Source of the DNA: Thermodesulfobacteriota bacterium
Lineage (GTDB): Bacteria; Desulfobacterota_D; UBA1144; Nemesobacterales; UBA2774
Reading direction: 5' to 3'
Length of the DNA stretch: 64,000 nt
NCBI GenBank assembly: GCA_041753155.1
Contig: JBGSVA010000096.1
Span: 2,036-66,035 of the forward strand
How positions within the stretch are numbered: position 1 is the first letter of the stretch; every line of letters begins with the position of its first letter. A model generated the notes under the pieces. That model saw nothing but the letters and a program-made list of their open reading frames with translations, did no database searches and was not told the DNA's origin. Made by a program: the position numbers and the translations under genes. This document shows positions 10,117 through 25,548 of the stretch, one piece after another.

Positions 10117-10312
10117 GACAGCAAAGACAGCAAAGACAGTAAGTTTTAATTAAAAAACTGTAAGGAGGGTTTAGTAGACCATGAATACCCTGTTCCCCGT
10201 AATCAGGGAATGGGAAATATGCTGTCACTGTTGTCATACTGTCATATATTCAATGATTATAGCATGTTGAGAATGACGGCTTCTATGACAGCATCGTATA
10301 CAATGACAACTG
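10117..10312. repeat. iteron cluster (GACAG / TGTCAT / ATGACA units) between replicase and integrase genes
   Basis: GACAGCAAAGACAGCAAAGACAGT (10117-10140). CTGTCACTGTTGTCATACTGTCAT (10222-10245). ATGACGG, ATGACAGC and ATGACAAC at 10272-10310. Confidence 0.6.
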
Positions 10313-10503
10313 TTTATGTAAATATAGCTTCAGAGCGCTTAAAAACCGGCAAGACATACTTAGATATAGGCCATGGTAAGAAAACCTTACTAGGGCTGTT
10401 ATAAGGCTTATTAGAGCTATATTATGCAGTATTGGAGGGCACTTGAAAACCTTGGGATTAGGTGATAGGATGGGTGAATTTAAAGAATTGAGGAGGTCTT
10501 ACT

Positions 10504-11583
10504 ATGGGTACAGCCTATTATCACCGTGGCGTATGGAATATCAAGTACGTAGGCCCCGACGGCAAGGATGTAACAGAGGCGTTAGGTCAGAAGTTTGCCG
10601 AGGAGCTTTTAAGACAACGAGAATCGGGAATATTTAGGGACTCAGCGCCCAAAACGCCTAAGTGCAGGGACTATGTAGAAACGTTTTTTAGTTATCTTAA
10701 GACCGTAAAGAAGAACCGTTCACTAAAAAGGTCTCGTCAGAGTCTTCATCATTTTCTTGAGATGTATGGGGACTTACAGCTTCATGAAATCACGCCTACA
10801 AAAATACATGACTTTATCAAAAAGCGGTCAAACGATGCCGGCAGGCATGGGGGAAAAGTTAAACATAATAGCATAGTCAAAGAGTTAATCACGATAAGAT
10901 ATATGTATCGTAGGGCTTTAAGCGAGGATTTTTTTAGAGACTGGAGAGATAAGAACGGGTATCCGTTTAGAAGCCCATTTATACATATTGAAATGAAACG
11001 TGAGAATGATTCACGGGAGAGGGTATTAACACGGGAAGAAGAGGCTCGTCTACTTTCATGCAGTCCACAGCCGTTAAATGACATAATTACAGTTTCATTA
11101 AATACAGGTATGAGACTGGGGGAAATCCTGTCTTTAGAATGGAAATTTGTTGATTTTGAGGTTAATGTTATCACCCTACCGCAAACGAATACGAAGAATG
11201 GAGAGGTAAGGCGAGTACCGTTAAACAACCTGATGCGCATTAAATTAAGGGAACGGTTTTTACAGGCCGGGCAGAACAGTTGGGTATTTCCTGCAGAGTC
11301 GAAATCAGGTCATGCAATTAATCCTCATAAAGTATGGTACCGGGCGTGTGAGCAAGCAGGCATTGAGGGACTAAGGTTTCATGACCTACGGCATACGGCA
11401 GCTACGAGACTTGTTGAGGCAGGGGTACCTTTAATAGCGGTTAAGGAATTACTAGGTCATTCTAGTATTGTTGTTACTGAGAGGTACACTCATCCGGATA
11501 AGTCTTTAGTTGAGGGTGTTGAAAAGCTATGTTCAATTGACAATCAATTGACATCCGACGGAAAAAACCCGGTCCCTAGGTAG
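10504..11583 (+). CDS. tyrosine site-specific integrase (element A)
   Basis: C-terminal catalytic region: [40 protein letters not shown]. Reads towards the tRNA copy 55 nt downstream. Confidence 0.9.
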   Translation: MGTAYYHRGVWNIKYVGPDGKDVTEALGQKFAEELLRQRESGIFRDSAPKTPKCRDYVETFFSYLKTVKKNRSLKRSRQSLHHFLEMYGDLQLHEITPTKIHDFIKKRSNDAGRHGGKVKHNSIVKELITIRYMYRRALSEDFFRDWRDKNGYPFRSPFIHIEMKRENDSRERVLTREEEARLLSCSPQPLNDIITVSLNTGMRLGEILSLEWKFVDFEVNVITLPQTNTKNGEVRRVPLNNLMRIKLRERFLQAGQNSWVFPAESKSGHAINPHKVWYRACEQAGIEGLRFHDLRHTAATRLVEAGVPLIAVKELLGHSSIVVTERYTHPDKSLVEGVEKLCSIDNQLTSDGKNPVPR

Positions 11584-11638
11584 ATTTAATGAAGTATTGG
11601 TCTCGTAACTACTTGAAATATTAGCATAATGTCCTAAT

Positions 11639-11680
11639 GCGCCCGTAGCTCAGTTGGATAGAGCAACGGACTTCTAATCC
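11639..11680 (+). repeat. copy of tRNA-Arg(TCT) nt 1-42 (acceptor 5' strand through the anticodon loop): att-type junction between elements A and B
   Basis: gcgcccgtagctcagttggatagagcaacggacttctaatcc is identical to 24748-24789. Identity stops after the anticodon loop. Confidence 0.85.
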
Positions 11681-11833
11681 TGATACCCATACTTTCACAA
11701 CCCTCCATGAATACACGGTTTGCCTGTAATTGCCCGTGTTTAGGCCTCATTCGCTTTTACACCCTGTTACATCCTGAACGCGGCGTATTGAAGCCTACCA
11801 GTCACAGCATGGTCACAAATCGGTTATTGCAAG

Positions 11834-12475
11834 GTGTTGTATGAAGGACTCGAATCTGATATATTGTTGTATATTTCTCCTATGCCTCATAAAAAGATGC
11901 AATCAAAAGACGAACCGGCAACCCTAACGCAACAGCAAATTGGGAATTATCTTAGAAGGTTATATCAGAAAAAAAGAGATGAATTACTATCCACGGTTTC
12001 TTTGACCGAACGTAACGCAATCACTTTAAGGTTGGGACTTGGTGACGGTAACGAACGAACCTATGAAGCGGTTGGCAAATCGCTCGGCTGCACGAAAGAG
12101 GGAGCCCGGAAAATAACTGTCCGAGGCTTAAACAAGCTGGAACCTGAAATAAGATATAGATTAAAAAAGAGCCCCCATAAAGAATACAATCGCGGAGTGT
12201 TGGCAAATAGATACTTCCTTCCCCGCACTGAGCAGAAAGGAATCATCAAAGAAAATTTCTTCACCAAGTTATCAAAACGAGAGCAGAGGGTACTCGCATT
12301 ACGATATGGCCTCAACGGCAAACAGAACTATACGTATAAACAAATTGGGGAGCTCGAAGGAATCACAACAGCCGGAGCCGAAAAACTTATAAAGCGGACT
12401 TTAAAAAAACTAAATATCGATCCCCCTGGAAAGGTAGGGAAAAAAGATTTGACATTTAAGTTACCTCTAGTATAA
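11834..12475 (+). CDS. protein with two tandem sigma-70 region-4-like HTH domains
   Basis: LTERNAITLRLGLGDGNERTYEAVGKSLGCTKEGARKITVRGLNKL and SKREQRVLALRYGLNGKQNYTYKQIGELEGITTAGAEKLIKRTLKKL. The true start may be the ATG at 11882. Confidence 0.6.
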   Translation: MLYEGLESDILLYISPMPHKKMQSKDEPATLTQQQIGNYLRRLYQKKRDELLSTVSLTERNAITLRLGLGDGNERTYEAVGKSLGCTKEGARKITVRGLNKLEPEIRYRLKKSPHKEYNRGVLANRYFLPRTEQKGIIKENFFTKLSKREQRVLALRYGLNGKQNYTYKQIGELEGITTAGAEKLIKRTLKKLNIDPPGKVGKKDLTFKLPLV

Positions 12476-12518
12476 TGTTAGCAACGGGCAGGTTGCGCCC
12501 AATGAAATGATAATTGAC

Positions 12519-12554
12519 AGCCGGACAGGGATTTCTCCTTGCCCGGCTTTTTTG
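12519..12554 (+). terminator. rho-independent terminator (first of a tandem pair)
   Basis: GC-rich hairpin (gccggacaggg...ccttgcccggc) followed by tttttt. Confidence 0.6.
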
Positions 12555-12567
12555 TATCGAAAATTCA

Positions 12568-12604
12568 AGCCGCTGGCCTTTTCGGAGGTCGAGCGGCTTT
12601 TTTG
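12568..12604 (+). terminator. rho-independent terminator (second of a tandem pair)
   Basis: agccgctggcc ttttcgga ggtcgagcggct followed by tttttt. Confidence 0.6.
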
Positions 12605-12619
12605 TTTCCCCGAATCGTC

Positions 12620-12826
12620 ATGGAAAAGTTCTATTCGATAAATCAGGCGGCGGCGCTAGTGGGCGTTACCCCGCGAACAATCAGACATTGGATAGCACTC
12701 GGTGAATTGAAGTACATACAGATCGGCAGGCGGATTTATTTGACAGAGCAGCACTTCAAAAATTTAGTTGGTGAAACGACGGAAGTAAATATAAATGGGA
12801 ATGATATTGAATTAGAAGAAAAATAA
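12620..12826 (+). CDS. excisionase-family HTH (HTH_17) protein
   Basis: MEKFYSINQAAALVGVTPRTIRHWIALGELKYIQIGRRIYLTEQHF. The track ORF 12539.. extends upstream through the terminators, so the ATG at 12620 is preferred. Confidence 0.7.
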   Translation: MEKFYSINQAAALVGVTPRTIRHWIALGELKYIQIGRRIYLTEQHFKNLVGETTEVNINGNDIELEEK

Positions 12827-12878
12827 ATAGCGGAGGGCCGGGAGCGTGAACTCTCGACCCCCGTAATGAGGTACTAAA

Positions 12879-14198
12879 GTGTTTGGCAACACTGTTGAAA
12901 AGAATAAAGCGGGAGAATCCCCGCGTCAAACCGAAGCCCTTGGCTTTCTTGCCTTTCTAAATCAGGAACGGGACGGCAGTTATGCCCCGGCCCGCATGGT
13001 ACGAGAGAACCCGGCAAGGCAAATTCACCGATACTTTACCTACAAAAGTCAATACACCGGCAAGAGCACAGTCACATCAGCTCGGCGTAATTACTCCCGG
13101 CGACAGATCGTAACCCTCAGAATATGGAAAGGCGGCTGCGGAAAAGATAATATCGCTTTTGTTATTGGCTTGGCCCTTGAGCTAGACGGCATTGAGGGTG
13201 AAGCCCCGAAGTCCTTGTATGACGTGTATCTTCATCTTGATGACCATAAACTCCCGCTGCCAACATACATCAATGAAACCTCACCCGGCCATTTTCATTT
13301 AATTTGGTTGTTCCAAAAACCCCTGCCCTGGACACCCAAGAACGCTAGATATTGGGAATCACAGGAACGTCGGCTAGTGGAGGTGTTCGCTCCCTTCGGG
13401 CCGGATATAAATGCCTGTCTCAACCCGGTGCAATTTTATCAAAACTGGACACAGCTCAATCCGTACAATCACAAGCGGAAGTGTGACATTAACATACACC
13501 GCACCGGGCATAAAACGAGCATGAGCGCAATTCAACATGCACTTGATCGTGCAGGCGTGCTGAATGAATGGATCCCCCGCATTCCCGCAGAAACGCTAAT
13601 TCGTCAAGACTTAAGACAGCGAAAATATATCACAGAGACCTACACCCAATGGGGTAAGCGTTTAGGGCTCTCGAAGCGCACTATGGACCGCGTTATACCG
13701 AAGCTAATCGAGAACGGCGACCTTATCAAAGAGCAGACTAGGGGAAACAATAAGCCCGTTAAACGAACCTATTTTTATAAATCCATGCTCTACATTGAAC
13801 CCCGCACGGAATTTAACAACACTGAAAAAGTGTCACACGAAGTTACACCTATTCTCACCCCAAAAGTGCCAACTTCCTTTAAAGAACTACGTTATGCTAA
13901 GGAAACGGCCTCGGCTGCGCTTGCCAAGGCGTTCCGCAAACATGGGGCCAGAGAAAACTACCGAAATAAAACCGCTTACGCTGTAGGAAGATATGAAAAG
14001 TGGAAAAGTGGCGGAAAAATTTGCGCCGGGGAGCTGAAAAAACGCCTTATGAATGGCTTAATGCGCTCAGAAAACTATGGCGCTTCTGGGAATTTTACCG
14101 TCGCCGAGCTCGACCGCACAGTCCAGAACGTCCTGAAAAGTAAGTATATACAACCACTTAGCCGAAAGACCCTTGCCGAATGGGGTTTGTCATGCTGA
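12879..14198 (+). CDS. putative replication initiator of the AEP / plasmid 'Replicase' type with C-terminal wHTH
   Basis: VIGLALELDG ... LPLPTYINETSPGHFHLIWLFQKPLPW...ARYWESQERRLVEVFAPFGPDINACLNPVQ resembles the DxD / sGxH / NP pattern of AEP replicases. LGLSKRTMDRVIPKLIENGDLIKE is the HTH. Confidence 0.5.
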   Translation: MFGNTVEKNKAGESPRQTEALGFLAFLNQERDGSYAPARMVRENPARQIHRYFTYKSQYTGKSTVTSARRNYSRRQIVTLRIWKGGCGKDNIAFVIGLALELDGIEGEAPKSLYDVYLHLDDHKLPLPTYINETSPGHFHLIWLFQKPLPWTPKNARYWESQERRLVEVFAPFGPDINACLNPVQFYQNWTQLNPYNHKRKCDINIHRTGHKTSMSAIQHALDRAGVLNEWIPRIPAETLIRQDLRQRKYITETYTQWGKRLGLSKRTMDRVIPKLIENGDLIKEQTRGNNKPVKRTYFYKSMLYIEPRTEFNNTEKVSHEVTPILTPKVPTSFKELRYAKETASAALAKAFRKHGARENYRNKTAYAVGRYEKWKSGGKICAGELKKRLMNGLMRSENYGASGNFTVAELDRTVQNVLKSKYIQPLSRKTLAEWGLSC

Positions 14199-14707
14199 AA
14201 GCCCATGCCCTAGCCGCAAAGACCCCCTTCCGTACCCGCCTGGCTTCCGGCCTTCGCTTTGAAAGTGAAGTCGAGGCCCGCTTTAGCGAGCTCAGGTACA
14301 AGCTTCACAGGTGCGGAGGTGAGACATATCCCCGGAGGGTGAAAGACCAGCTCATCAAACTCGACGACTTCACGAGTTTATTTTTAAGATTCCAGCCGGA
14401 CTTCTATTGTGTGACAGCTCACAGTTCATTTTTTATCGAATGCAAGGGCCGCCGACAGGACTCAAGGTTTTACGCTTTCAATGTAGACGAGCTAGAGTTG
14501 CAAATGCAACTGACCCGGTTAGGGATTCGGATATTAGTCGTCTTTGAATCCGGCTCGGGCTTTAAAGCTCAGTGGCTTGATAAGCTGAGAATATTTAAAA
14601 CGTGCGACGGCTCGCCTTCCGGTAGCGGCGGACGGTTCGCGCTGATCTCCGAGAGGGATTTGCCGAACCTGGATTCGATTTTGTTTAGGAGAGTGCCGAA
14701 TGGCTGA
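14192..14707 (+). CDS. PD-(D/E)xK, VRR-NUC-like nuclease
   Basis: QPDFYCV...FFIECKGRRQD...ELELQMQLTRLGIRILVVF fits PD...ExK...Q...G. Overlaps both neighbouring genes. Confidence 0.45.
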   Translation: MLKAHALAAKTPFRTRLASGLRFESEVEARFSELRYKLHRCGGETYPRRVKDQLIKLDDFTSLFLRFQPDFYCVTAHSSFFIECKGRRQDSRFYAFNVDELELQMQLTRLGIRILVVFESGSGFKAQWLDKLRIFKTCDGSPSGSGGRFALISERDLPNLDSILFRRVPNG

Positions 14708-17700
14708 CATAAAAACGCTCACAACGAAAATCGTTGCCGACGTTTCGGGTTTAAAACAAATCGCCGCCGAATCGAAAAAGACCGCAAGCGAGATCGAGCG
14801 GTCGGGCAAGGGCGGCGTCAGCACATTCGGCATGATGAACAAAACGCTGGAGCAATCCGCAACAAAGCTCGGAATCCTGGGCGGATTAGTAGGTGGGCTC
14901 ACTGCATCGTTTTTAGGCTTCGCTCAGGGCGCACTGCGCGCTTTAGCATCGTTACCCGTGCAACTATTTAATTTACTCGTGGACTCTGGGCGGGAAGCTG
15001 AAACACAAATTCTGAGACTATCTACAATCCTTCAAATTCCGCAGGATAAAGCGGAAGAAGCGTTCGAGGCGATAAGAACGTTCGCACGGGATTTACCGCC
15101 GACAACCGACCAGGTGGTTGACGCCTTTCTCGCCTTAGAAAGCGTCTCGCTCGCCGGAACGGAAGAAAATTTGAAGCGCGTCATTTCCGCTAGTCTCGCA
15201 CTCAAGAGGCCGCTTGAAGATATTACAGCCGTTGTGCGCTCGATCGAGACTGAACCGCTCAGAAATCTTGGCATTCAGTTATCGCGGAATAAAGACATAG
15301 CCGATCTCACGTTCCGTGGTATACGCTTGCAGGTTGCTAACACGGACAAGGGAATCCGCGAGGGCCTATTGGAATTATTCAAAGTCGCATTTCCCGACGC
15401 GATTAAAAATTCTGAAGATATTTTCGATACGGCGTTGAGCGGCCTTAGAAGTTTAATTCAGGACATAGTAGTCGGTCCTGGGAGCCGATTAACCGCACAG
15501 CTTACCGAGGTTGTAAAAGAGACTAAGAAATGGGTCGAGGCGAACCAAGACTTGATAGAACAAAAGCTATCGCAATTTGTAGACGACTTTGCTAAGGCTA
15601 TTCCGAAGGCGATAGAGACATTAAAAGAGTTTGTGCAATTCTTAAAAGAGCTGAATGAAGCGGGACACCAGGCGGCGGGCGTGTTGGATTCAATCAGTGC
15701 GAAGTTTCAGAGCTTCGGAGAGACCTTCGGCAACACCTTAGAGGCGATTAATAAAAGCCCCGCGCTGGATACGGTATTCGGGACCCTGGAATCGTCGCTC
15801 GGCGCCCTTTTCGGGCCGACTGGCATTCTGAGAAAATTACAGGAGATATCAAAGCAATCGGGCTTCGCCGCTTTCTTATCCGAAGATGCCAATACATTCA
15901 GGGATTTTGCGGATTCCATGAAAGACGTTGAAAAGAACGCACAGGGCGCGGACAATGCGGTTGCTGCAGCGGCAGGCACGATTGACGCCTTCGCCGGAGG
16001 GAGCGGTCCGTTACCCTCCCTGGTAGAGCAAGCGGGGCGGGGAGCGGATAAAGCCAAGTCCCTCACAAATGAAATTCTCAATTTGCAGTTAGGTATAGAG
16101 AAAATCGGGAAGACGCCCGCGCAGATTATAGAACTTGAGGGAGCGTTCAAAGGTGTAGAGGCGCAGAGTAAAGCACTCGGCGATGAATGGACGCGGCTTT
16201 CTCTCATAAAAATTGGCGAAGAGGTTTTACAGTCGCTTAAAGATACGATAAAAGGGCTTCGGCTAGAGCAGGCGGAGATCATCGCAACCAAAGACGAGCT
16301 GATTGACCTCAAGGTTCGTTTAAAAGAAGTCGAGCTCGCACAGCGCGGCGTTGCGAGCGGTACGGCGGAGGCGACGGGGCAACTGACCGCATATAGGCGA
16401 GAGCTTGAGAAACTCGATTTTGTTAAAGAGATAGACGAAAAGCTAAGAAGCGGCGATCTTAATTTATTCGATCCGTTCACCAAAAGCTTTTTAAGATTCC
16501 AAGATCAGATACAGGACTTCGGAGATAAGGCGAAAGAGACTTTTGACTCACTTGACGACTTTATCGGAAACGTGGCCTCGAATATTGCTACTACATTCAG
16601 CGATCTAATTTACGGCACATTGACGGGCCAGTTTGATGATCTCAAGGACATATTCAAGAATGCGCTGCGCTCAATGCTCAGGACCTTCACGGACTTTATA
16701 GGCGCGGTTCTCGCAAACCCGATCAGGATTGCACTTGACGCGACGCTCGGCGGAAGCGGAGGGGGCGGAGCTGTCAACCTTGCGAATATCGGCAGTTCTA
16801 TAACTGGATTTTTCAGCGGTATAGGTGAGTCTTTCCGTTCTCTCGGGAGTCTCGTACTCGGAGAGTTTGCAGGCTTCGCCGGATTCGCGGGGACTCTCTC
16901 GGCGGCCCTGCCCGCAATCGGAACGATTCTTGCCGCCGCCGCTATCGCAATACCGTTGATAATCGACGCCTTTAAGAAAACGCCGCGGCTGGACATAGAT
17001 TTCGATTCGGTCAAAGAAGAAATAGGAAGGCGCGCCGCGTTCGTTTCCGAGTTCCTAAATGACGACTTCTTTGTAAACGAGATAGCTCAAATTTCAGTAA
17101 AGAGAAAAGCCGGGCTCGGGGTAGGCGGTGACGAGGCGATTAAAAACCTGATACAAGACCAGATCGAGGCGACCGTAGAAAGCGTCCAGGCGATACTAAA
17201 CAAACTTCCGAGCGAGCTCGCAGCGCGGCTTACCCAGGAGTTATTGAATACTCAGGTGGATATTGAAAGCGTAATCGGCGGGGAAAGGCTTTTAGAATTT
17301 GACGCGAAAGGAAAGGAAATTAAAAAGAAGTTTGAAGCGTTCATTAACGGTGAACTCCAGGCGAAATTCTTATTTGCAATACGGGACTTCTTTACCGGAG
17401 CCTTTGAAGCCCTGGGGGTACTTCCCGAAAACGCCCAGGCGTTTATAGATGCTGAGTTTGAGAGATTCAAAACAGCGGGCAGCCGGGAGGCACGGGCGGA
17501 GATAGGAAAGGAACTGTTAGAGGCGTTCGACACCTTCACAAATGCCTTCAATATCGTCTCGGGCAATGGCGTTGATTCGATTAACGCTGCGGTAAATTCC
17601 GTTCAGAACTTAGCGAGTACGCTCGGCTTCGACGCCGTTCCGTCATTAGAAGAACTCCGGGCGGAATTGGGACAGTTAATTGAGAGTGCGGAGATAGACC

Positions 17701-19196
17701 CGGAAACCGTACAGAGCTTTATTGATCTAAGGGCGGCGATAATACAACTCAGGACGGCGATACTAGATTCAATATCTTCCATAATCGGAAATATTCAATC
17801 CCTGAACTCGACCATTGCATCCTTCGGCGGAAGCGTGGTGGATCTGAGTGGATTCTTAAACCAGGCGGTAGGTGATATTCAAAACATACTCTCCCAGGGC
17901 GGCTTATCGATTGACGAGCAGGAATTTCTACTCGGCGAGCTCTCGGGCTTCGCTAACCAGCTATTAGCGGAAGAAAGGGCGGCCTTTGAATCTGCACAGG
18001 CGGCACAACAGGCGGCGAATGAAGCGCAACGCGCCGGAATACAGTCTCGCATTGATGCTTTAGGCAAAGAGAAAGAGAAAATAAACGAGACTTTCCGCGT
18101 CCGCATTGACGCTTTAAATGCAGAATTACAGCTCGCCCAGGACTTCCAAAGGCTTACCGAGTCGATAAAGAGTACATTGGATTCGATTATATTCAGCCCT
18201 GAATCAGTGTTGACCGGGGTTGAGCAGACAAATGCACTGCAGGGCCGAATCAACACTCTGCAGGGGCAACTTAGCACAACCAGCGACCCGCAGCTGCAAT
18301 TACAAATAGGTGAAGAACTCCGGGACACATTTGAGCGGTTATTCAGTTCAGCGGGGGACGCTTTCGGCGTGAACTCGCCCGAATTCGTTTCGATCTTCAA
18401 CCAGGTGACCGGAGGCTTGGAAAGTCTCGCCGACTTGACGGCTACACAAGGCCGGAGCGTAGAGGAAATCAGTGCCGAGATAGAAAGGCTTACAGCATTG
18501 AACGGTGAACGGTTAGACGCGATAGACGCTAAAATCGAGACTGCTCAGGATAGACTGGCCTCTATTGGACAGGCGACCGCAAACAACACCTTCCGGGCCT
18601 CCCAGGAGCTTCAATCCCTGTTTGAGTTTATTCGCTCCGAGTACATAAGGATTTTAGAAGAAAGGTTCGATCAGCTTTCCGAGATTAGCGACAGCGGCTT
18701 CCAGAATGAGATCGAGGCAGTGAGCGCCCTTATCGATGTATCGAAGGACCAGCTTTCTCAGATAGGCGAGCAGACAACCGTATTGCGGTCGATAGAATCC
18801 CTGCTCGGCAACCTTCAGGGCTTTCAGCATGGCACGGGCGGAGTAAAGGACTTCGGGCAGGGGACGCTTGCCTTACTTCACGGGCGCGAGAGTGTTCTAA
18901 CCGAGCGGCAGTTAAGCTCACTCGCACAATTTCCGATCTCACGACGTCGTGAAGATTTTTTACCAGGCTTTATGAATCGAGGCAGCGATTCTCACCTTGT
19001 GCATGATTTATCTGTCGATGTAAGCGGACAGATAAATATTAGCGGCAATATGAGTGATGAGAGTTTAACGAAATTTGCGGACAAGCTCGGCAAGAGCATT
19101 AGTAGGAATGTGAAGGATGAAGTCACGAAAGAAATAGAAACAGGCGGGCGGCTGCGAGTTGCGGTTCAGAACGCCGGGAAAAAAAGTTTAAATTAA
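14700..19196 (+). CDS. 1498-aa tape-measure-like protein: coiled-coil rich, central Gly-rich hydrophobic segments
   Basis: The N-terminal region resembles the TP901-type tape-measure domain (RTFARDLPPTTDQVVDAFLALESVSLAGTEENLKRVISASLAL). The central part reads GGSGGGGAVNLANIGSSITGFFSG...GFAGFAGTLSAALPAIGTILAAAAIAIPLIIDAF. The C-terminal part reads GFQHGTGGVKDFGQGTLALLHGRESVLTERQ. Confidence 0.6.
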   Translation: MADIKTLTTKIVADVSGLKQIAAESKKTASEIERSGKGGVSTFGMMNKTLEQSATKLGILGGLVGGLTASFLGFAQGALRALASLPVQLFNLLVDSGREAETQILRLSTILQIPQDKAEEAFEAIRTFARDLPPTTDQVVDAFLALESVSLAGTEENLKRVISASLALKRPLEDITAVVRSIETEPLRNLGIQLSRNKDIADLTFRGIRLQVANTDKGIREGLLELFKVAFPDAIKNSEDIFDTALSGLRSLIQDIVVGPGSRLTAQLTEVVKETKKWVEANQDLIEQKLSQFVDDFAKAIPKAIETLKEFVQFLKELNEAGHQAAGVLDSISAKFQSFGETFGNTLEAINKSPALDTVFGTLESSLGALFGPTGILRKLQEISKQSGFAAFLSEDANTFRDFADSMKDVEKNAQGADNAVAAAAGTIDAFAGGSGPLPSLVEQAGRGADKAKSLTNEILNLQLGIEKIGKTPAQIIELEGAFKGVEAQSKALGDEWTRLSLIKIGEEVLQSLKDTIKGLRLEQAEIIATKDELIDLKVRLKEVELAQRGVASGTAEATGQLTAYRRELEKLDFVKEIDEKLRSGDLNLFDPFTKSFLRFQDQIQDFGDKAKETFDSLDDFIGNVASNIATTFSDLIYGTLTGQFDDLKDIFKNALRSMLRTFTDFIGAVLANPIRIALDATLGGSGGGGAVNLANIGSSITGFFSGIGESFRSLGSLVLGEFAGFAGFAGTLSAALPAIGTILAAAAIAIPLIIDAFKKTPRLDIDFDSVKEEIGRRAAFVSEFLNDDFFVNEIAQISVKRKAGLGVGGDEAIKNLIQDQIEATVESVQAILNKLPSELAARLTQELLNTQVDIESVIGGERLLEFDAKGKEIKKKFEAFINGELQAKFLFAIRDFFTGAFEALGVLPENAQAFIDAEFERFKTAGSREARAEIGKELLEAFDTFTNAFNIVSGNGVDSINAAVNSVQNLASTLGFDAVPSLEELRAELGQLIESAEIDPETVQSFIDLRAAIIQLRTAILDSISSIIGNIQSLNSTIASFGGSVVDLSGFLNQAVGDIQNILSQGGLSIDEQEFLLGELSGFANQLLAEERAAFESAQAAQQAANEAQRAGIQSRIDALGKEKEKINETFRVRIDALNAELQLAQDFQRLTESIKSTLDSIIFSPESVLTGVEQTNALQGRINTLQGQLSTTSDPQLQLQIGEELRDTFERLFSSAGDAFGVNSPEFVSIFNQVTGGLESLADLTATQGRSVEEISAEIERLTALNGERLDAIDAKIETAQDRLASIGQATANNTFRASQELQSLFEFIRSEYIRILEERFDQLSEISDSGFQNEIEAVSALIDVSKDQLSQIGEQTTVLRSIESLLGNLQGFQHGTGGVKDFGQGTLALLHGRESVLTERQLSSLAQFPISRRREDFLPGFMNRGSDSHLVHDLSVDVSGQINISGNMSDESLTKFADKLGKSISRNVKDEVTKEIETGGRLRVAVQNAGKKSLN

Positions 19197-19213
19197 AAAT
19201 GTGGAGGTGTTAA

Positions 19214-19450
19214 ATGGCTAAGGAAATACCGAATATTTATAGGGCGATTAAGTGGTTGAGTATGTCTTATGAAGAAGCAAAAAAGCGGTATCGACTCCGG
19301 GAAGCGGCCGGGGAGATTACCGGCCCGCAGCGTCACCAGCTCGAACTTGAATTAGATTTTAATTTCAAGTCCGAAATCGATTCGATGATAGCAAGGGTCG
19401 ATAACGGCGAGCTCGACGGCACGGTCGAAGCGGAGGCGTCAAATGGATAA
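19214..19450 (+). CDS. hypothetical protein (78 aa)
   Basis: ORF with GGAGG RBS, tightly packed after the large gene. Confidence 0.5.
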   Translation: MAKEIPNIYRAIKWLSMSYEEAKKRYRLREAAGEITGPQRHQLELELDFNFKSEIDSMIARVDNGELDGTVEAEASNG

Positions 19451-20186
19451 TTACGAGCTTTACCATAAAGAAGCCTCCAATCTTACCGCCTGGAGAGTCG
19501 GGGAAGAAAAGAAAATAAGGTCGAATTCTAATCTGAGCAAGGAGGGGCAAACAAAAGACCTCCTTGCGCTTAGCGACACTTATGCGCAAAAAAAGAACGA
19601 CCTGAAGACCCGGTTTCAAAGCGATAGGACAAAGGAGCGTGAACGGTTAAATGGCAGGTTAAACGGGAAGCCGAAGGGTCACTCATTCAGGGACCGCGTA
19701 AGAGCGAAAGCCCAAAAAGACAGCTCCGACTATTCCTTGCTCACGACCGAGAATGAAAGTCACTTTGCCCTGCTCGAAGGCATTGAAGAAATGGCCGAAG
19801 CGATACGGGAAAACACCTTTGTCCGTTCTATAGGCTCATTCGATAGTGAGGGGCTTAATAAAAGATTGAGTGCGGCTTTCGAGAGCAACGATACGCAGCG
19901 GATTAAATGGCTTCGCAATCATGCGGATAGCAGGGGCGCGCAGGCGACAGTCGGCGCGATAGACGCCCATTTCGAGGCTAACAGGCCCCCGGTAGAAAGG
20001 CTCGCGAAAGAGCACATACGAAAGCTCGATTTATACAATGAGTTTTTCACTCAGGGACTTGATCTCGCCGAAAAGACAGGGCAAATGCCGGACTTCCGCG
20101 GCGGTGAGAGTGAGCAGAAAATAGACATTGAGATCGAACGGATTAAAAAAGAGATTCAGAATGATAATGAAAGCAAAACAGAGTAA
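19443..20186 (+). CDS. hypothetical protein (247 aa), charged/helical
   Basis: ORF overlapping the previous gene by 8 nt. No motif recognised. Confidence 0.55.
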   Translation: MDNYELYHKEASNLTAWRVGEEKKIRSNSNLSKEGQTKDLLALSDTYAQKKNDLKTRFQSDRTKERERLNGRLNGKPKGHSFRDRVRAKAQKDSSDYSLLTTENESHFALLEGIEEMAEAIRENTFVRSIGSFDSEGLNKRLSAAFESNDTQRIKWLRNHADSRGAQATVGAIDAHFEANRPPVERLAKEHIRKLDLYNEFFTQGLDLAEKTGQMPDFRGGESEQKIDIEIERIKKEIQNDNESKTE

Positions 20187-20326
20187 TGGTTGCTAGGTGG
20201 AACGGGCTCGCGTTGCAATTCTCTTTCATCTTCCTTTCGGCGCGGGCCTTGTTTCACTTTGAACTATAAATATTGCAATAACTGTGTGATATGACACAAT
20301 ATATAATATAGGGAGATTTATCAATT

Positions 20327-20632
20327 ATGGGACGCGAAGGATACCAAAACTTATCGAGCCTAAGTGACGTTAGAAAGTTCCTATCAAAGCTGATTAACCA
20401 GCGCAACAATAATCAGATAGCGTCGGCGAAGTACAGAGACCTGTGCTTTGGCTTGAAGATTATGAGGGAAGTCCTGGAGGCTATGTTCCTACAGTCCGAA
20501 GTCCTTGAGCGCTTGGCTCACCTTGAGGGACAGACTTATATCCCGCCCTCGTTACCGAATGGCAACGGCAATGATGATGACGACCTTGACGAGCCGGAAA
20601 CCGAAGCCGAAGGGGAACGTGAATGGGCCTGA
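20327..20632 (+). CDS. hypothetical protein (101 aa) with acidic tail
   Basis: ORF downstream of an AT-rich promoter-like region containing the palindrome TGTGTGAT/ATGACACA. The tail reads DDDDLDEPETEAEGE. Confidence 0.5.
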   Translation: MGREGYQNLSSLSDVRKFLSKLINQRNNNQIASAKYRDLCFGLKIMREVLEAMFLQSEVLERLAHLEGQTYIPPSLPNGNGNDDDDLDEPETEAEGEREWA

Positions 20633-21036
20633 AAGAAGCGTTGACTCGTATTAAGAGGCTTGAGAGAGTGTCCGGGTTAACCGACCGTGAGCAGCAAAAA
20701 CGGGATGTTATCGAGATTATAAAGTGCCGTGAGCGCGATTACCCCGAGCAGATTCAGGAAACATTATGGTCTATAGTCCAGTTAAGCCAAGCCGAGATCA
20801 GGGCAATGGGCCGGGGAGAAAAGACCATTGAAGACTTCCGGGACCGCTTCAAATGGGATTACGATAAATTCATGCAGGGCATATACCCCCCCCGTGAGAC
20901 TCAAGATACCTGGACACAAGGCCGGGAGCTTGCCATATTCTCCGCGAGCAGGGGAGAAAAGTTTCACGATTACTTTTTGACGGATGAAGATCGGATGACG
21001 TTAGGATTAGATCACCGTAAGGCGGTTATTCAATGA
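20623..21036 (+). CDS. hypothetical protein (137 aa)
   Basis: ORF overlapping the upstream gene by 10 nt and the downstream gene by 4 nt (operon packing). Confidence 0.5.
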   Translation: MGLKEALTRIKRLERVSGLTDREQQKRDVIEIIKCRERDYPEQIQETLWSIVQLSQAEIRAMGRGEKTIEDFRDRFKWDYDKFMQGIYPPRETQDTWTQGRELAIFSASRGEKFHDYFLTDEDRMTLGLDHRKAVIQ

Positions 21037-21299
21037 GTGACGAACCCGAGCAGCTTCCCATTTACCTTATGAGTCTACCGCCCACTGGCGTCATCATGAA
21101 CGATAAGGACGGCAATCCCTGCCAGGTGATTAGCTGGCCTATTCAGGGCGTAGGAATCGAGACTATCAAATCAATGTTTCTGAATGCATTCGACGCTGAA
21201 TTGAGCGATCAGAACGCGGAGATTTTAGACCAGGGCGGGAGGGTAAAGCTGGTAGGCAAGATACAAGATGTTGTGGTTAGCGACTCGCAGGAAGTTTAA
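21033..21299 (+). CDS. hypothetical protein (88 aa)
   Basis: ORF with an ATGA overlap with the upstream gene. Confidence 0.5.
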   Translation: MSDEPEQLPIYLMSLPPTGVIMNDKDGNPCQVISWPIQGVGIETIKSMFLNAFDAELSDQNAEILDQGGRVKLVGKIQDVVVSDSQEV

Positions 21300-21556
21300 T
21301 AAAAGTGGCAGATGAAACGAAATAAGCAATGCATATTTGTCTCTGAGTGGCACATGGGCGGCATAGGTGAGGCAGACCCGATAGAGAGTTTAGAGAAATT
21401 CATGACATTTACACGCCACTTTGAGAATTATTGTGTTATGCAGTAATGACGGGCACTTATGAAGATAGCTAGTTTACATATTGTACATTATCGGACATAA
21501 TTTCACCATTAAAATTTATAGGAAAGACACAAGATGTTGTGGTTAAGGAGCTAAGT

Positions 21557-21784
21557 ATGCATGTAAAGAAGATTGTCATTAAGGGCCACCGTCCGTATTA
21601 TGCGATAGCCGAGGCTTTCAGGGTAAAAGGCGACCCGAGCCCTAAAACGCGAATATTGGCTAACCTGGGGCATACCAAGGACCCTGATCGAGCGTATTCT
21701 AAGGCCGTCGCTCAATATCTCCGGGCTGCCGAGCGAGTATCGCGCCTTGAGGTAGCAATGGCCGGACTCGCGGGGAAGGCTTAA
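21557..21784 (+). CDS. small basic protein (75 aa) with a KGxxYYaiaEsFR..G....R.LanLG motif, as in the N-termini of some IS1634-type transposases
   Basis: AAGGAG lies 6 nt before the ATG at 21557 (the track starts at the GTG at 21539). HVKKIVIKGHRPYYAIAEAFRVKGDPSPKTRILANLGH. Confidence 0.45.
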   Translation: MHVKKIVIKGHRPYYAIAEAFRVKGDPSPKTRILANLGHTKDPDRAYSKAVAQYLRAAERVSRLEVAMAGLAGKA

Positions 21785-21981
21785 CAGCGTGGCTAAACGA
21801 ACGCACAGGGGCATATAAAGAGCATTCCCGAACTTATCAGGGCGGCTGCGCTAGTGGCTTACGGGATCGAGCTCAGCGATCTCTACGTCGAGCTTATAAT
21901 GATCCGGCAAATGTCATTCAGGGACGCTGTGAGGGAGGCCAGGAGCCACGATAGCGGGTACGCGGACGTGAGGGCGGTGCA

Positions 21982-22851
21982 TTGAGAAAGCGAAGGAAGG
22001 TCACCTGGGGGCTTATTCAGGAATCGTATGCAGTTCTATCCGAGCAGAATCCTATGACGCTCCGGCAGTTGTTTTACCAGCTCGTAACCCGGCACATCAT
22101 ACCGAATGAGCATAGTGCTTATCAGAGGCTATCCCGTGTCATGACGGATGCAAGGGACAGCGGCGATATTCCCTATGAATGGATAGTAGACCGCTCGAAG
22201 GTAGAGCGCGTTCCGAATGCATGGAGTGACCTAGAGGGTTATATGGATACTGTTACTAAGGCTTATAATAGAGACCGTTGGAAGGATCAGCCTTATCACA
22301 TAGAACTATGGCTCGAAAAGGACACACTCACCGGTTCGGTTGAGGGCCTATGCAGACAATACGGGATACCGCTAAGAGCTTATAGGGGCTTCAGCTCGAC
22401 TACTAAGAAGTGGGAAATGGCGGGGTTATTCAACAGCGTTAAGAAGCCCGTAGTAATATTTTATGTAGGAGATCACGACCCTAGCGGCCAGGACATTGAA
22501 AGGGACTTGCAATCATCCCTTCGTGGTTATGGGGCTTACAATTTCCAGATTATTCGCATTGCCATTTTCGGAGATGACATAGCGGAGTTTAAACTTCCGC
22601 CGTTGCGAATCAAGGACAAAGACCCCCGGAGTAGGAAGTTTAAATCCACTTATGGGACGGAGACGATTGAAGCCGACGCCCTGCCGCCTAATGAACTAAG
22701 ACAAAGATTGCAAGATCATCTCCTTAACCTGATAGACCGTGACGCCTGGGGGAAGTCGAAAGAAATAGAAAAGGTTGAAAAGCAATCAATCATAGATATA
22801 GTCGGCAGGTGGAAGGAGCTCAATACTCAAACTGATACTAGTATCAGTTAA
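21982..22851 (+). CDS. Spo11/Topo VI subunit A-like protein (5Y-CAP + Toprim only), 'Topo mini-A'-like
   Basis: MTLRQLFYQLV (candidate catalytic Tyr in a wHTH). HIELWLEKDTLTG (Toprim Glu, compare VEKdavf). VIFYVGDHDPSGQDIERDL (DxDPxG). 289 aa, TTG start. Confidence 0.6.
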   Translation: MRKRRKVTWGLIQESYAVLSEQNPMTLRQLFYQLVTRHIIPNEHSAYQRLSRVMTDARDSGDIPYEWIVDRSKVERVPNAWSDLEGYMDTVTKAYNRDRWKDQPYHIELWLEKDTLTGSVEGLCRQYGIPLRAYRGFSSTTKKWEMAGLFNSVKKPVVIFYVGDHDPSGQDIERDLQSSLRGYGAYNFQIIRIAIFGDDIAEFKLPPLRIKDKDPRSRKFKSTYGTETIEADALPPNELRQRLQDHLLNLIDRDAWGKSKEIEKVEKQSIIDIVGRWKELNTQTDTSIS

Positions 22852-22854
22852 GCG

Positions 22855-23034
22855 TTACTTCCCCTTCCCGCTGTACTTGGAAAGGATATGATCTATGCCC
22901 TCGACTAGCAGGTCATTAATGAACTTATCCTGTTGCACGGCTAGTAATTTGAGCTTCTTACTCTTATCCTGGGGAATCCGGGCGGCTATTTGAACGAGGT
23001 CTTTATCAGACTTGGGTTTCTTTTTTGGAGTCAT
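22855..23034 (-). CDS. ribbon-helix-helix (CopG/Arc-like) repressor, 59 aa
   Basis: KDLVQIAARIPQDKSKKLKLLAVQQDKFINDLLVEGIDHIL has the beta-alpha-alpha pattern. Start taken at the ATG at 23034, just outside the operator. Confidence 0.55.
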   Translation of the reverse strand: MTPKKKPKSDKDLVQIAARIPQDKSKKLKLLAVQQDKFINDLLVEGIDHILSKYSGKGK

Positions 23035-23059
23035 GTTAACACTATGCCATAAAACGATT

Positions 23060-23101
23060 ATTCTAACAAGTATTGACATATGAATGATAGTTTGTTAGAA
23101 T
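23060..23101. promoter_or_regulatory. operator/promoter: perfect 10-bp inverted repeat enclosing a sigma70-type promoter
   Basis: ATTCTAACAA-N22-TTGTTAGAAT. Inside it are TTGACA (23073-23078), a 17-nt spacer and TAGAAT (23096-23101), pointing at the gene at 23134. Confidence 0.6.
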
Positions 23102-23133
23102 GTTAACAAATCCAATTAAGGAGGGAGTAAGAA

Positions 23134-23595
23134 ATGAGCACATATTTAATAAAGGTAGAGAATGAGAATGGGAGTACCTGGGGTTACGCGGAGCGGGCTA
23201 AGACGATTGTAGATGCCTTATCGAATTATATTGACGGTAAGGACCAAGTGATCCCAACGGTTAAGAGCGTTCAATTTGCAACCGAGCATGAGACTTATCG
23301 GGATGTTATACACTTTGTCAGTTGCCGCCTCGATAATCTATTCACAGAGTTAAAGGGCTTAAACGAACGGGGGCGGGATCTAGCGGGGAATATCTCACCA
23401 CATGAAGATAGGCTCGTTGCGGCAGAGACCCAATGGGAAATTTACCATTTAGCGCAAGGTATGGAGAGCATACTCGGCCAAGTGAAGGATATGTGTCATC
23501 TGCATCATGCATTCAGTGAAGGACGTATAGACCTGACTTTAGAAGAAGATCAAGAGTACCGTCAGAGAATCGTAAAAAAAAGAGTTAACGGTTAA
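23134..23595 (+). CDS. hypothetical protein (153 aa)
   Basis: ORF with GGAGGGAG RBS, followed by a strong terminator. Confidence 0.55.
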   Translation: MSTYLIKVENENGSTWGYAERAKTIVDALSNYIDGKDQVIPTVKSVQFATEHETYRDVIHFVSCRLDNLFTELKGLNERGRDLAGNISPHEDRLVAAETQWEIYHLAQGMESILGQVKDMCHLHHAFSEGRIDLTLEEDQEYRQRIVKKRVNG

Positions 23596-23598
23596 CAA

Positions 23599-23628
23599 CC
23601 CCGGGGGGCTTCGGCCCCCCTTTTTTTT
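23599..23628 (+). terminator. rho-independent terminator
   Basis: ccccggggggc ttcg gcccccc followed by tttttttt. Confidence 0.8.
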
Positions 23629-23662
23629 GCCCCTGTCATTGGCTATTATGAATGGCAGGGAT

Positions 23663-24727
23663 ATGGGCGTCTATAAGCGTGTAGATAGATGGTATTTAGA
23701 TTACTACCTGCCGAACGGTCAAAGGGTGAGGGAAAGGGTCACGATTAAGGGTGTAGACCCTTCCCGGATAACCAAGAAGCTCGCCCTGGCCTCCTTATCG
23801 ATCAGAAAAGCCGAGCTCGCCGAAGGTAAATTCGATATTGTCCAGACTAGAAAGCAGGTCCTGTTTGATAAGGCGGTAAAGTCCTTCATTGAAGATTACT
23901 CGAAGATCCATAAGAAATCCTGGACGCGGGATGTTACATCTTCACGAGCTTTACAGAGTTATTTCGGCGGCAAGAGAATAAGCTCGATCAATACCTGGCT
24001 CGTGAATAAGTACCGCTCAAGGCGTCTTAATGAAGTGGCGAAGGCTACTATTAACCGGGAGCTCGCCTTTCTAAAGACTATGCTTAACTTCGCCGTTCAA
24101 AGGAACTGGCTATCTACTAATCCGCTCAAGGGTTATAAGCGCTTCCCCGAGCCCCCGAAAACAAGGATAGTTACTAAAGAAGAATTCAGGGCGGTCTATG
24201 GCGAAGCTTCCGACTTTTTGAAGCCCATACTTTTAATGGCCGTGAATACGGGTATGAGGCGCGGCGAGATATTCGATCTTAAGTGGAGTAATGTAAACCT
24301 GGCCGAAGGCTATCTCTTGGTCGAAGATTCAAAGAATAACGAGTCGAGGCATATCACTATCAATAAGCAGTTGAATGAGGCCCTAAAGTCGGTAAAATAC
24401 CATGCCTCCGGGGATTACGTATTCAGTCACGGAGGGAGCCGGGTAAAGACCTTTAAAACGGCCTTTAACGCTGCGATAAGGCGGGCTGGGGTTAAGCCGT
24501 TCAGGTTTCACGACCTGAGACATACCTTTGCGAGCAATCTTGTTATGAAGGGCGTCGATCTCGTGACCGTAGGGGAGTTACTAGGACACAAGAGCCTGTC
24601 AATGACAAGGCGCTATTCACACCCGAGCCCGGAACATAAAAAACAGGCGGTTGAGAAACTTGATTTCGATATTTCAGTCACAAAAACAGACAAAGATGAA
24701 ACCGAGATCAAAACGAAGCGCTCATAA
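23663..24727 (+). CDS. tyrosine site-specific integrase (element B)
   Basis: [22 protein letters not shown]... and [40 protein letters not shown]. Paralogous to the integrase at 10504. Ends 20 nt before the tRNA. Confidence 0.9.
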
Positions 24728-24747
24728 CCTATTGTAATCATTATAAT

Positions 24748-24824
<77 letters not shown>

Positions 24825-24835
24825 ATTTTCCCTAC

Positions 24836-25021
24836 ATTGACCTTGCGAAATATTTAAAAGTGAAAAAACGTACTGCATATCACATCGTGGCCACCCTGAA
24901 TATTCCTCACTACAGGGTCGGCAGGCTGATCAGGTTCAAGCTGAGTGAGGTTGAAGATTGGATGAACAAAAATAAGGCCGAGCAGTTGATTGTGCCTTAC
25001 GATAAACTCGAAAGTGTGTAA
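24836..25021 (+). pseudogene. excisionase-type HTH gene lacking a normal start codon (abuts the tRNA)
   Basis: In-frame reading ...[47 protein letters not shown]...ESV*. The frame stays open back into the tRNA with no ATG upstream of the HTH. Confidence 0.45.
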
Positions 25022-25045
25022 TACTAACGATTAAATCCGCAGACA

Positions 25046-25070
25046 GGGGGCAATTAGCCCCCTCTTTTTT
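25046..25070 (+). terminator. rho-independent terminator
   Basis: gggggc aatta gccccc followed by tctttttt. Confidence 0.7.
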
Positions 25071-25230
25071 ACCAAAGAATACTTATATCAGCAGTTTCAA
25101 AACTTACCCATGATTTCCTAGCACTCATATGAAAATTAAAACAGAACAACTAAGGTCATTAGCACAACTCAGAAAAGCTTACCTAGACGCAGACTCTCAA
25201 AAAGAGATTAATCAAATTCTTGAATAAACA

Positions 25231-25458
25231 ATGAAAACAACACAAGAAATCCTGGCCCAAAATGGCATCAACTGGACATTGCACACTAACGAAAACAGTA
25301 ATCATGAAATAAAGGAAGATGAGATGCAACAACTAACTACAGAAGAAATAGTCAAAGCACTAGACGACTATCTGACAAAAAAGAATATAATACGGGAAAA
25401 TACACCCAAACAAATAACAGTCAAACAGGCCTCAGAACTATATAACATGCCTCTATAG
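25231..25458 (+). CDS. small ORF (75 aa) whose C-terminus looks like the start of a truncated HTH_17 domain
   Basis: ...ITVKQASELYNMPL followed by TAG. Possibly another Xis-like remnant. Confidence 0.3.
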   Translation: MKTTQEILAQNGINWTLHTNENSNHEIKEDEMQQLTTEEIVKALDDYLTKKNIIRENTPKQITVKQASELYNMPL

Positions 25459-25548
25459 AAGGGAGTATGATCCAACAATTTTTAGGGGTTGGGCTGAAAT
25501 ATTATATACTTTAAAAAAGGATCGACTTCAGCGATAAGCAAATAGATT

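Follow-up and report, generated by a model that had tools for sequence, protein, structure and literature searches.

Before 2025-26, phage satellites were thought to take the tails of their helper phages unchanged. This view has since been altered by satellites that encode a tail tape measure protein (TMP) of their own. The TMP of the Vibrio PLEs (described in 2026) is present in the satellite virions, where it replaces the TMP in ICP1-derived tails and makes these tails 10 nm shorter, and deletion of the PLE tmp gene cuts transduction by 96-99.9% (PMC12987554). The EPIP satellites also encode a TMP, and with them the principle of the chimeric tail has been published (PMC12822802). Putative tmp genes are also reported for some cfPICIs (Extended Data Fig. 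10 of PMC12987554), and the authors of the PLE study suggested that the habit of owning a TMP is wider. Here we describe Element B, a ~13.1-kb element integrated at a tRNA-Arg(TCT) gene in a 64,000-nt stretch of contig JBGSVA010000096.1 from a Thermodesulfobacteriota bacterium. The whole stretch is referred to as the window; unless another locus is named, coordinates are positions in it, and features lie on its plus strand unless noted. Element B spans 11635-24789, including its terminal repeats. It is best read as a helper-dependent phage satellite that inserts its own TMP into the tails of its helper, a reading to which we assign a probability of about 0.65. Together with three relatives it appears to represent an undescribed satellite family that uses the recently described TMP-swap strategy, and in which the TMPs of satellites and phages are unusually close and demonstrably recombine.

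The homologies of the 1498-aa product of the gene at 14700-19196 identify it as a true tail tape measure protein (phrog_167, 1.7e-13). An earlier sequence-only reading of the window had described a giant TMP-like protein that takes up a third of the element, and both points hold, as the gene makes up 34% of Element B and its product shares 43-44% identity, along 94-97% of its length, with P0002 and P0003, the TMPs encoded in the phage tail modules L001 and L002. Relatives are very few even in a search of 5.8 billion proteins. In L001 and L002 the TMP gene is preceded, in this order, by those for a tail terminator and a tube-family protein of 494 aa and by a 189-aa gene that has a frameshift-type extension, and is followed by distal tail genes; a gene with such an extension is the classic tail chaperone pair. 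Six further loci of the same phage lineage came from scans of IMG/VR, GTDB genomes and JGI metagenomes, for a total of eight, and two of the six lie on contigs of a 'delta proteobacterium' metagenome-assembled genome. Matches to residues 93-259 of the Element B protein also include annotated TMPs from cultured phages of Xanthomonas, Stenotrophomonas and Escherichia. Around residues 685-755 there is a glycine-rich hydrophobic stretch (GGSGGGG...AALPAIGTILAAAAIAIPLII) whose flanking residues are invariant in all four sequences of alignment A1, and both the N- and the C-terminal segments of the protein are conserved. It is 47-54% identical to the TMPs of the sister elements L013 (47%) and L003, and is ~150-170 residues shorter than the phage TMPs; the TMP of L003 is longer. 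In four of the phage-type loci (L004, L007, L010 and L011), two to four separate stretches match TMP residues ~606-965, which could mean internal duplications, tandem TMP-like genes or assembly problems.

The second line of evidence is what accompanies the TMP gene and what does not. Element B possesses attachment (att) repeats, an integrase, an excisionase-like protein (Xis) and a replication protein (Rep), and it lacks a complete set of virion genes: scans with Pfam, PHROGs (also at E values up to 1) and NCBIfam found no capsid, portal, terminase, tube or lysis gene, which upholds the earlier statement that no capsid, portal or terminase is recognisable. With no head, portal, tube or lysis genes of its own, Element B would have to borrow its virions from a helper. 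Across the family, genes suited to hijacking are found in every member, with the TMP present in four of four and the small (TerS) and large (TerL) terminase subunits in two, L013 and L014. Only with a helper does it make sense to carry a terminase but no capsid, or a tape measure but no tube. These observations bear on the three possibilities that had been raised from the letters alone, namely a satellite parasitising the tail assembly of a helper, a membrane-containing or pleomorphic virus-like element, and a new family of integrative plasmids. The first gives the best fit, given the orthology and recombination of the TMP and the terminase subunits of the relatives. The other two can be joined as an autonomous non-tailed virus or integrative plasmid in which the giant protein has some other job, for which it may be said that the small size, the integrase and the Rep resemble those of plasmid-like viruses and that several open reading frames (ORFs) are unannotated. 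We consider the chance of this to be very slim. Along its full length the giant protein is an orthologue of TMPs in tail modules, the Caudoviricetes-type TerL of the relatives needs a portal-bearing capsid, no packaging ATPase, spike protein or jelly-roll candidate is present (the conserved protein o247 is all-alpha), and Pfam and PHROG scans found no conjugation genes. The pleomorphic-virus version is therefore rejected, being contradicted by a tail-module TMP and by the relatives' terminase, and a plain plasmid fits poorly, with some room left by the evidence.

Four members of the family have been found so far. L003 was reached through relatives of the TMP and L013 through o247; L013 is complete, and L003 and L014 are fragments. 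The core common to the family is Xis - [variable Rep] - TMP - o78 - o247 - ... - RHH - Int, where o78 and o247 are two conserved proteins and RHH is a ribbon-helix-helix regulator. L013 measures 13.65 kb and is bounded by a 62-nt repeat at a tRNA-Leu gene. Its proteins are identical to their Element B counterparts at 59% (Xis), 47% (TMP), 55% (o78), 49% (o247), 43% (o81), 48% (a further small ORF), 43% (RHH) and 55% (integrase) of positions. The fragment L003 carries, in order, a sigma-r4 protein, an HTH_17 protein, a Rep of a different type, a homologue (56%) of the 175-aa protein of Element B, the TMP and o78. The TMP-o78 junction is kept in all four members and o247 in all but the truncated L003, and in the three elements Element B, L003 and L013 the upstream replication gene overlaps the start of the TMP gene by the same 8 nt. 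Between o247 and o81, L013 and L014 have a gene for a 139-aa TerS-like protein and one for a 424-aa TerL; the L013 TerL matches phrog_2 (1.2e-38) and 564 phage TerL records. No trace of a terminase exists at the corresponding position of Element B, where three unrelated small genes stand instead, and no capsid, portal, tube or lysis gene was found in any member. The replication module is swapped across the family, being AEP-type in Element B, of the HTH_36 type in L003 and a 318-aa Rep without a Pfam match in L013. Inside the 318-aa rep gene of L013 (4593-4695 of that locus) are five 18-nt palindromic iterons (TGTTCACGGTGGTGAACA) spaced 21-22 nt apart, which are likely to be the origin of replication.

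This family also bears on whether Element B is a decaying prophage, in which case a larger tailed prophage would have shed its head genes along with most tail genes, leaving the TMP behind as cargo. The TMP is clearly of phage origin, and the region is an integration hot spot with several degraded-looking islands. Set against this are two complete elements, of 13.1 and 13.65 kb, that lie at different tRNAs, agree in the order of their core genes and have repeats that are perfect or nearly so, an identical overlap of replication gene and TMP in three elements whose proteins are only ~50% identical, and TMP reading frames that are all intact at 4.5-5.2 kb and under strong selection over the segment shared with a phage (ratio of nonsynonymous to synonymous substitution rates, dN/dS, 0.03-0.07). 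None of the phage lineage's other genes is present. Two complete members at different tRNAs, with long intact frames and conserved junctions at ~50% protein identity, are not a chance deletion product. Decay is accordingly a highly improbable account, and in the simple form that the sequence-only reading had itself raised, a deletion remnant of a larger prophage, it is rejected: the complete L013 at tRNA-Leu, with intact repeats, near-equal size, the conserved core order and intact frames, speaks directly against it.

Attempts to enlarge the family returned little. No further member was found in IMG/VR with the nuclease-like 175-aa protein, the Mini-A protein, an o247 alignment or the L013 TerL, nor in JGI metagenomes with an alignment of the nuclease-like protein, and TMP scans of IMG/VR, GTDB genomes and metagenomes yielded phage-type loci only. 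A 3-kb contig in Logan (SRR28170468; locus L018) encodes an identical o247 among the same neighbours (the end of the TMP, o78, o101 and the start of o137), so that Element B or a near-identical copy is traceable in that data set.

The third line of evidence is the mosaic structure of the TMPs. The TMP genes of the satellite L003 and the phage L001 are 89.5% identical at the DNA level over 2.9 kb, and over the corresponding segment of ~950 aa the protein identity is 87-99%, with 96-99% over most of it. Outside this segment, beyond sharp breakpoints, the first 725 and last 55 residues are only 25-33% identical. The Element B protein shows a patchwork of its own: its first 260 aa are 56% identical to those of the phages L001 and L002 and 23-24% identical to those of the other satellites, and its C-terminal region is closest to the satellite L013 (67%). 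The TMPs are thus mosaics, with segments exchanged between satellites and phages, and the patchwork implies repeated co-residence of the two in one cell; one satellite (L013) and one phage (L005) come from the same metagenome, 3300015615. Within the L003/L001 segment the synonymous divergence (dS) is 0.39-0.50 and dN/dS is 0.03-0.07 over most of the length, with 0.20 in the first window of the comparison. Such low ratios indicate that the satellite copy has been kept working like the phage copy. Frequent recombination with phages, of which the mosaicism is a sign, could also be cited for a satellite that captured a TMP and makes no use of it in its own transfer. An idle TMP is nevertheless quite improbable, as the gene occupies 34% of a very small genome, is present in four of four family members and is under strong purifying selection.

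A scheme for the life of such a satellite can be proposed from this gene content. The helper would be a long-tailed phage of the L001/L002/L005 lineage. In the repressed state the RHH regulator and the leader of the long operon would keep that operon silent. On a signal from the helper, the operon xis-rep-(nuclease)-TMP-o78-o247 would be transcribed, and the element would excise by means of integrase and Xis and replicate by means of Rep. The satellite TMP would then enter tail assembly of the helper through its conserved N- and C-terminal segments and replace the helper TMP, giving chimeric tails, and the virions would consist of helper heads joined to tails with a satellite tape measure inside. 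Since the Element B TMP is shorter than those of the phages, shorter tails are predicted, by ~20-25 nm. The protein that opens the way for DNA entry would then be the satellite TMP. The genes o78 and o247 probably belong to the hijack module. The sister elements L013 and L014 could redirect packaging with their own TerS and TerL, and Element B would presumably be packaged by the helper terminase, which would have to recognise a site in its DNA. By owning a TMP, a satellite might control the length of the tail or the entry of DNA, evade exclusion or sabotage its helper.

The last of these possibilities can be taken further. TMP, o78 and o247 may form a self-contained module for swap and sabotage that arose independently of the PLEs, the satellite TMP replacing that of the helper and o78 or o247 blocking or diverting the helper TMP or its chaperones. 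Only tails programmed by the satellite would then form, and the exchange of TMP segments would be the trace of an arms race. We regard this elaboration as unlikely. If it held, an entire family of satellites would hijack virions primarily through the TMP swap, which would be sufficient for that purpose, and this would explain why satellite finders that forbid tail genes miss such elements. The main alternative to a satellite that travels in helper virions is a role in interference only. Element B would in this case be a defence island, not transferred in virions, whose TMP copy, possibly together with o78, poisons tail assembly of infecting phages of the lineage, to the benefit of the host population. 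Blocking of tail assembly is documented on satellites and prophages (Tai systems, PMC11364771; PLE11 Rta), Element B has no terminase genes, and its TMP, being expressed with the early (replication) genes, would be present before helper tails assemble. We nonetheless judge it distinctly unlikely. The TerS and TerL of the sister elements point to packaging beyond defence alone, the TMP is of full length with both conserved ends and a phage-like purifying selection where a decoy would need less, and PADLOC returned nothing beyond a generic HTH match. Interference and self-transfer coexist in PLEs, and interference may be an added role rather than a rival.

Several points weigh against the helper-dependent satellite with a swapped TMP. 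No helper prophage was found in the 64-kb window, no family member is present in IMG/VR, and the family numbers only four. Element B carries no terminase gene, and neither a pac nor a cos site was identified in it. A tail assembly chaperone is likewise absent, and profile-profile comparison found o78 and o247 unrelated to the phage chaperone pair. The translational coupling of a structural gene to replication genes is an odd arrangement. Element B and the phage loci have no DNA in common outside the TMP gene (blastn). Structural modelling was informative for o247, and small unconventional virion proteins may still be hidden among seven small ORFs.

With regard to the genes downstream of the TMP, the sequence-only reading had listed six small or medium unknowns packed with overlapping stops and starts. 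The unknowns are there, besides o247 ranging from 78 to 153 aa across Element B, and not all of them overlap, with intergenic gaps of 140, 239 and 197 nt. The first, o78 (19214-19450), has homologues of 46-61% identity directly 3' of the TMP gene in L003, L013 (55%) and L014, and matches no known family in Pfam, PHROGs or NCBIfam. The second, o247 (19443-20186), is an all-alpha protein that is conserved in the same position in L013 and L014; its four homologues are ~50% identical (L013, 49%). An AlphaFold2 (AF2) model of o247 (pLDDT 79.6) has ten helices, and Foldseek searches of the PDB and BFVD with this model gave nothing below E = 0.2. An all-alpha protein with no fold match does not have an HK97, jelly-roll, portal or terminase fold, so that the structure search for a hidden capsid, portal or terminase was negative for this candidate. 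The next three genes, o101, o137 and o88 (20327-21299), occupy the TerS/TerL position of L013 and L014. Neither the related loci nor phages nor any of the family libraries hold a homologue of them; a tblastn search of 50,697 phage records with o137 found no match.

The 239-nt A+T-rich gap between o88 and o81 contains a 44-aa ORF (21312-21446) and is surrounded by a 36-nt direct repeat of 83% identity (21244-21279 and 21510-21545). It also holds a 26-nt non-coding motif, TTTACATATTGTACATTATCGGACAT, with the palindrome TGTACA (21473-21498, no strand assigned), which is conserved in L013 (12975-13000 of that locus, opposite strand) at 24 of 26 positions, or 26 of 28 over 21471-21498, in contrast to the ~50% identity of the proteins of the two elements. 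The motif is inverted relative to the neighbouring o81 gene and occurs once per element; neither the phage loci nor IMG/VR contain it. An operator, an origin and a packaging site are possible roles. The adjoining o81 (21539-21784) encodes a conserved small protein, 43% identical to the product of L013 13043-13279; it ends with two in-frame stop codons three codons apart, and the same frame runs on into the next small ORF. This ORF, of 43 aa when read from a GTG (21854-21985), is 48% identical to L013 13269-13448, with the similarity beginning upstream of GTG 21854, the first standard start, and its stop overlaps the TTG start of the gene that follows, Mini-A.

The remaining gene content agrees with the order that had been read from the letters. 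At the left end, a 213-aa protein with two sigma-70 region-4 domains (11834-12475; Pfam Sigma70_r4 1e-15, in two stretches), as had been recognised, forms a transcription unit of its own and is 46% identical to the first gene of L003. It is followed by a consensus sigma-70 promoter detected by a promoter scan (12449-12476; TTGACA-16-TATAAT, 12 of 12 positions) and by two strong intrinsic terminators (12519-12548 and 12568-12598) in the leader ahead of the xis-rep-TMP operon, which places the two terminators noted earlier. The leader DNA is 81% identical to L003 922-1012, exceeding the conservation of the flanking genes, and compensatory changes keep two base pairs between Element B and L003. 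This arrangement of promoter and terminators (12449-12612; L003 775-1012), which occurs in both of the elements with a tandem sigma-r4 protein, resembles a switch that acts by antitermination or through a leader RNA and is comparable in logic to P4 immunity. The scan with Rfam for non-coding RNAs returned tRNA only.

The operon opens with an HTH_17 DNA-binding protein of the AlpA/Xis type (12620-12826; Pfam HTH_17 2.3e-9; PHROG excisionase), 59% identical to its L013 homologue, in keeping with the Xis-like assignment made before. The Rep that follows (12879-14198) was called AEP-type, and the call is reasonable, supported transitively by its homologues, from which an AEP (RepB'/ColE2-type) primase domain, a winged helix and a PriCT-like C-terminus can be proposed. 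The Element B protein itself has no direct Pfam match. An exhaustive search of 1.84 billion representatives gave 38 relatives, and among the 30 scanned with Pfam, RepB_primase was matched by 10 (best 1e-7), PriCT_1 by two and Replicase (ColE2) by one. Residues 244-301 match a PHROG of replication initiators (9.8e-6), and FLDLDG and ETSPGHFH are present in the family consensus. The 175-aa protein (14180-14707), whose gene overlaps the TMP start by 8 nt, had been proposed as a VRR-NUC-like nuclease. Its L003 homologue (2185-2697 of that locus; 56% identity) has the same 8-nt overlap, and E28, D74 and E87-C-K89 are invariant in two known homologues. This pattern (E28...D74...E87-x-K89) makes a PD-(D/E)xK nuclease possible on its motifs; no Pfam, PHROG, NCBIfam or PDB match (by sequence or profile) accompanies it, a tblastn search of phages was empty, and a single-sequence AF2 model was unusable (pLDDT 33). 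A word-indexed protein search with this protein missed even the L003 homologue.

At the right end, the RHH regulator (22855-23079, minus strand; Pfam Antitox_RHH 2.6e-6), 43% identical to L013 13607-13789 (also on the minus strand of that locus), is divergently transcribed from a control region (23033-23108, no strand assigned) in which an 11/12 promoter (23073-23101) is flanked by inverted repeats (ATTCTAACAA / TTGTTAGAAT, plus two copies of ATGTTAACA), as expected of the divergent repressor with operator that had been predicted. There follow, in the order given before, the 153-aa unknown o153 (23134-23595), which matched no family library and, by tblastn, none of the 50,697 phage records, a strong terminator (23603-23620), and the tyrosine integrase (23627-24727; Pfam Phage_integrase 3.5e-34; phrog_1 7.5e-73). 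The integrase is 55% identical to that of L013, and its gene ends 17 nt before the adjacent att site at 24744.

Element B is cleanly bounded by two perfect copies of a 46-nt direct repeat (4 nt plus positions 1-42 of tRNA-Arg), attL at 11635-11680 and attR at 24744-24789, the latter within the region of the intact tRNA-Arg(TCT) gene (24748-24824; ARAGORN, Rfam). The interval 11681-24747 outlined from the sequence alone is the DNA between the repeats, which are spaced 13,109 bp apart; 100 shuffles gave no chance match to a 46-nt repeat. Insertion duplicated the 5' half of the tRNA, so that in the working gene the 5' half, together with the sequence upstream of it, comes from the element, the reverse of the usual 3'-end arrangement. 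The end of L003 (1-30 of that locus) adjoins the same tRNA-Arg (30/30 nt, positions 30-59), on the opposite strand and in the 3' half, and both junctions are located in the anticodon stem-loop.

The G+C content of Element B is 0.44-0.52, compared with 0.37-0.45 in the islands on both sides and 0.51-0.57 in the chromosome from ~30 kb onward, where nitrate-assimilation and molybdenum-cofactor genes are found. A second small element, Element A (7155-11583), lies in tandem at the same att. It encodes a 796-aa Prim-Pol/zinc-finger primase, has two AlpA-like ORFs of the HTH_17 type and carries a tyrosine integrase whose end lies just short of the left tRNA fragment. A third copy of the 5' half of the tRNA was not found in the window, and the left end of Element A is undefined or lies outside it. 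Beyond the 3' end of the tRNA gene, its 3' part recurs as an exact copy of 47 nt (29604-29650), which delimits a third low-G+C island of ~4.8 kb (24825-29650), which encodes a 53-aa HTH_17-like ORF and a 522-aa protein with a nitroreductase domain; no integrase was seen in it. Shorter fragments of the tRNA 3' end are repeated at 29814, 29903 and 29990, and G+C rises to 0.54 at ~30 kb. In window 1-5700 no complete ORF of at least 150 aa is listed, though the GC skew is strongly negative; a very long minus-strand gene that leaves the window at its left end is the probable cause.

The gene between the 43-aa ORF and the RHH gene can be compared with a known protein family. Its 289-aa product (21982-22851), earlier described as Spo11/Top6A-like, is borne out as a Mini-A, a stand-alone Top6A/Spo11-like protein with 5Y-CAP and Toprim domains (phrog_6247 1.7e-61, all catalytic motifs present), and is matched by 84 phage records. 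R28-Q-L-F-Y32, E112, GDHDPSG at 163-169 and E230-A-D-A-L align with the proteins of Salvo, Pam3 and JG054, and it is by such features that Takahashi et al. define the Mini-A subfamily (PMC7671362). The size of ~290 aa, the RxxFY motif, the Toprim E and DxDxxG, the C-terminal ExDAL box and the lack of a B subunit are common to viral Mini-As and the Element B protein (PMC7671362), and Pfam and PHROG scans found no GHKL protein in Element B. The typical C-terminal box is WELDAL, whereas that of Element B is IEADAL, with the W not kept. Other Mini-As are found in phages or complete proviruses, whereas this one would belong to a non-autonomous satellite. The gene is missing from L013 and is therefore an accessory insertion.

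Among described satellites, the PICI/SaPI and P4-like groups have the backbone of Element B in common (integrase, AlpA/Xis-type HTH and primase or replicase, in 10-15 kb at a specific att or tRNA), and redirect packaging with a terminase subunit of their own, as the sister elements may do (PMC10085698). Element B differs in lacking TerS, a capsid-morphogenesis gene and any homologue of Psu, Sid or Delta. By the PICI definition of SatelliteFinder (PMC10085698), three of five core components are present (integrase, HTH_17 and primase-Rep). The same tool does not allow tail genes in PICI or cfPICI, where they count as forbidden components (PMC10085698), so that the TMP would cause the family of Element B to be filtered out. 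With the P4-like elements, no match was found in PHROG and Pfam scans to Psu, Sid, Delta, Ash or the alpha-type primase-helicase, and the Rep of Element B is of the RepB'/ColE2 primase type without a helicase. The cfPICIs have TerL and TerS, as do L013 and L014, but also a capsid, portal, protease and head-tail connectors, none of which was found in Element B or L013. The EPIP of Mycolicibacterium aichiense, with HerbertWM as helper, is an 11-kb satellite with a TMP whose particles have an altered tail length (PMC12822802). It differs by its actinobacterial host, its serine integrase and its major capsid protein, scaffold, TerS and head-tail adaptors and stopper, none of which occurs in Element B (PMC12822802).

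The closest functional parallel is offered by the PLEs, which like Element B are small integrated satellites with their own replication, their own TMP and clustered tail-manipulation genes (PMC12987554). The likeness lies in owning a TMP; no sequence relationship was found via PHROGs and PADLOC, a comparison in which no PLE protein was aligned directly. Element B, in contrast to a PLE, has a tyrosine integrase at a tRNA and also carries a Mini-A, and it shows no recognisable counterpart of the PLE tail chaperone (TAC) or baseplate hub (BhuB). The helper of the PLEs, ICP1, has a contractile tail, whereas the putative helper of Element B has a tail module of the long non-contractile type. The PLE TMP is 20% identical to that of ICP1, whereas the Element B TMP is 43-56% identical to those of phages and the L003 TMP reaches 99% over most of the segment it shares with a phage. 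The earlier view that no described family resembles Element B thus stands in part: the family is, as far as we found, undescribed, but the principle of the TMP swap has been published for the PLEs (PMC12987554) and EPIP (PMC12822802). Element B and its three relatives would constitute an independent case, in uncultured Gram-negative bacteria known from metagenomes. They also expose a blind spot in detection, as tools that read any tail gene as 'phage, not satellite' discard such elements, and none of the four members is in IMG/VR. Being compact (~13 kb), with TMP, o78 and o247 as the only conserved non-housekeeping genes, the system is well suited to asking what is gained by owning a TMP. Beyond the PLE case, it offers direct sequence evidence for a single recombining pool of satellite and phage TMPs under the same purifying selection.

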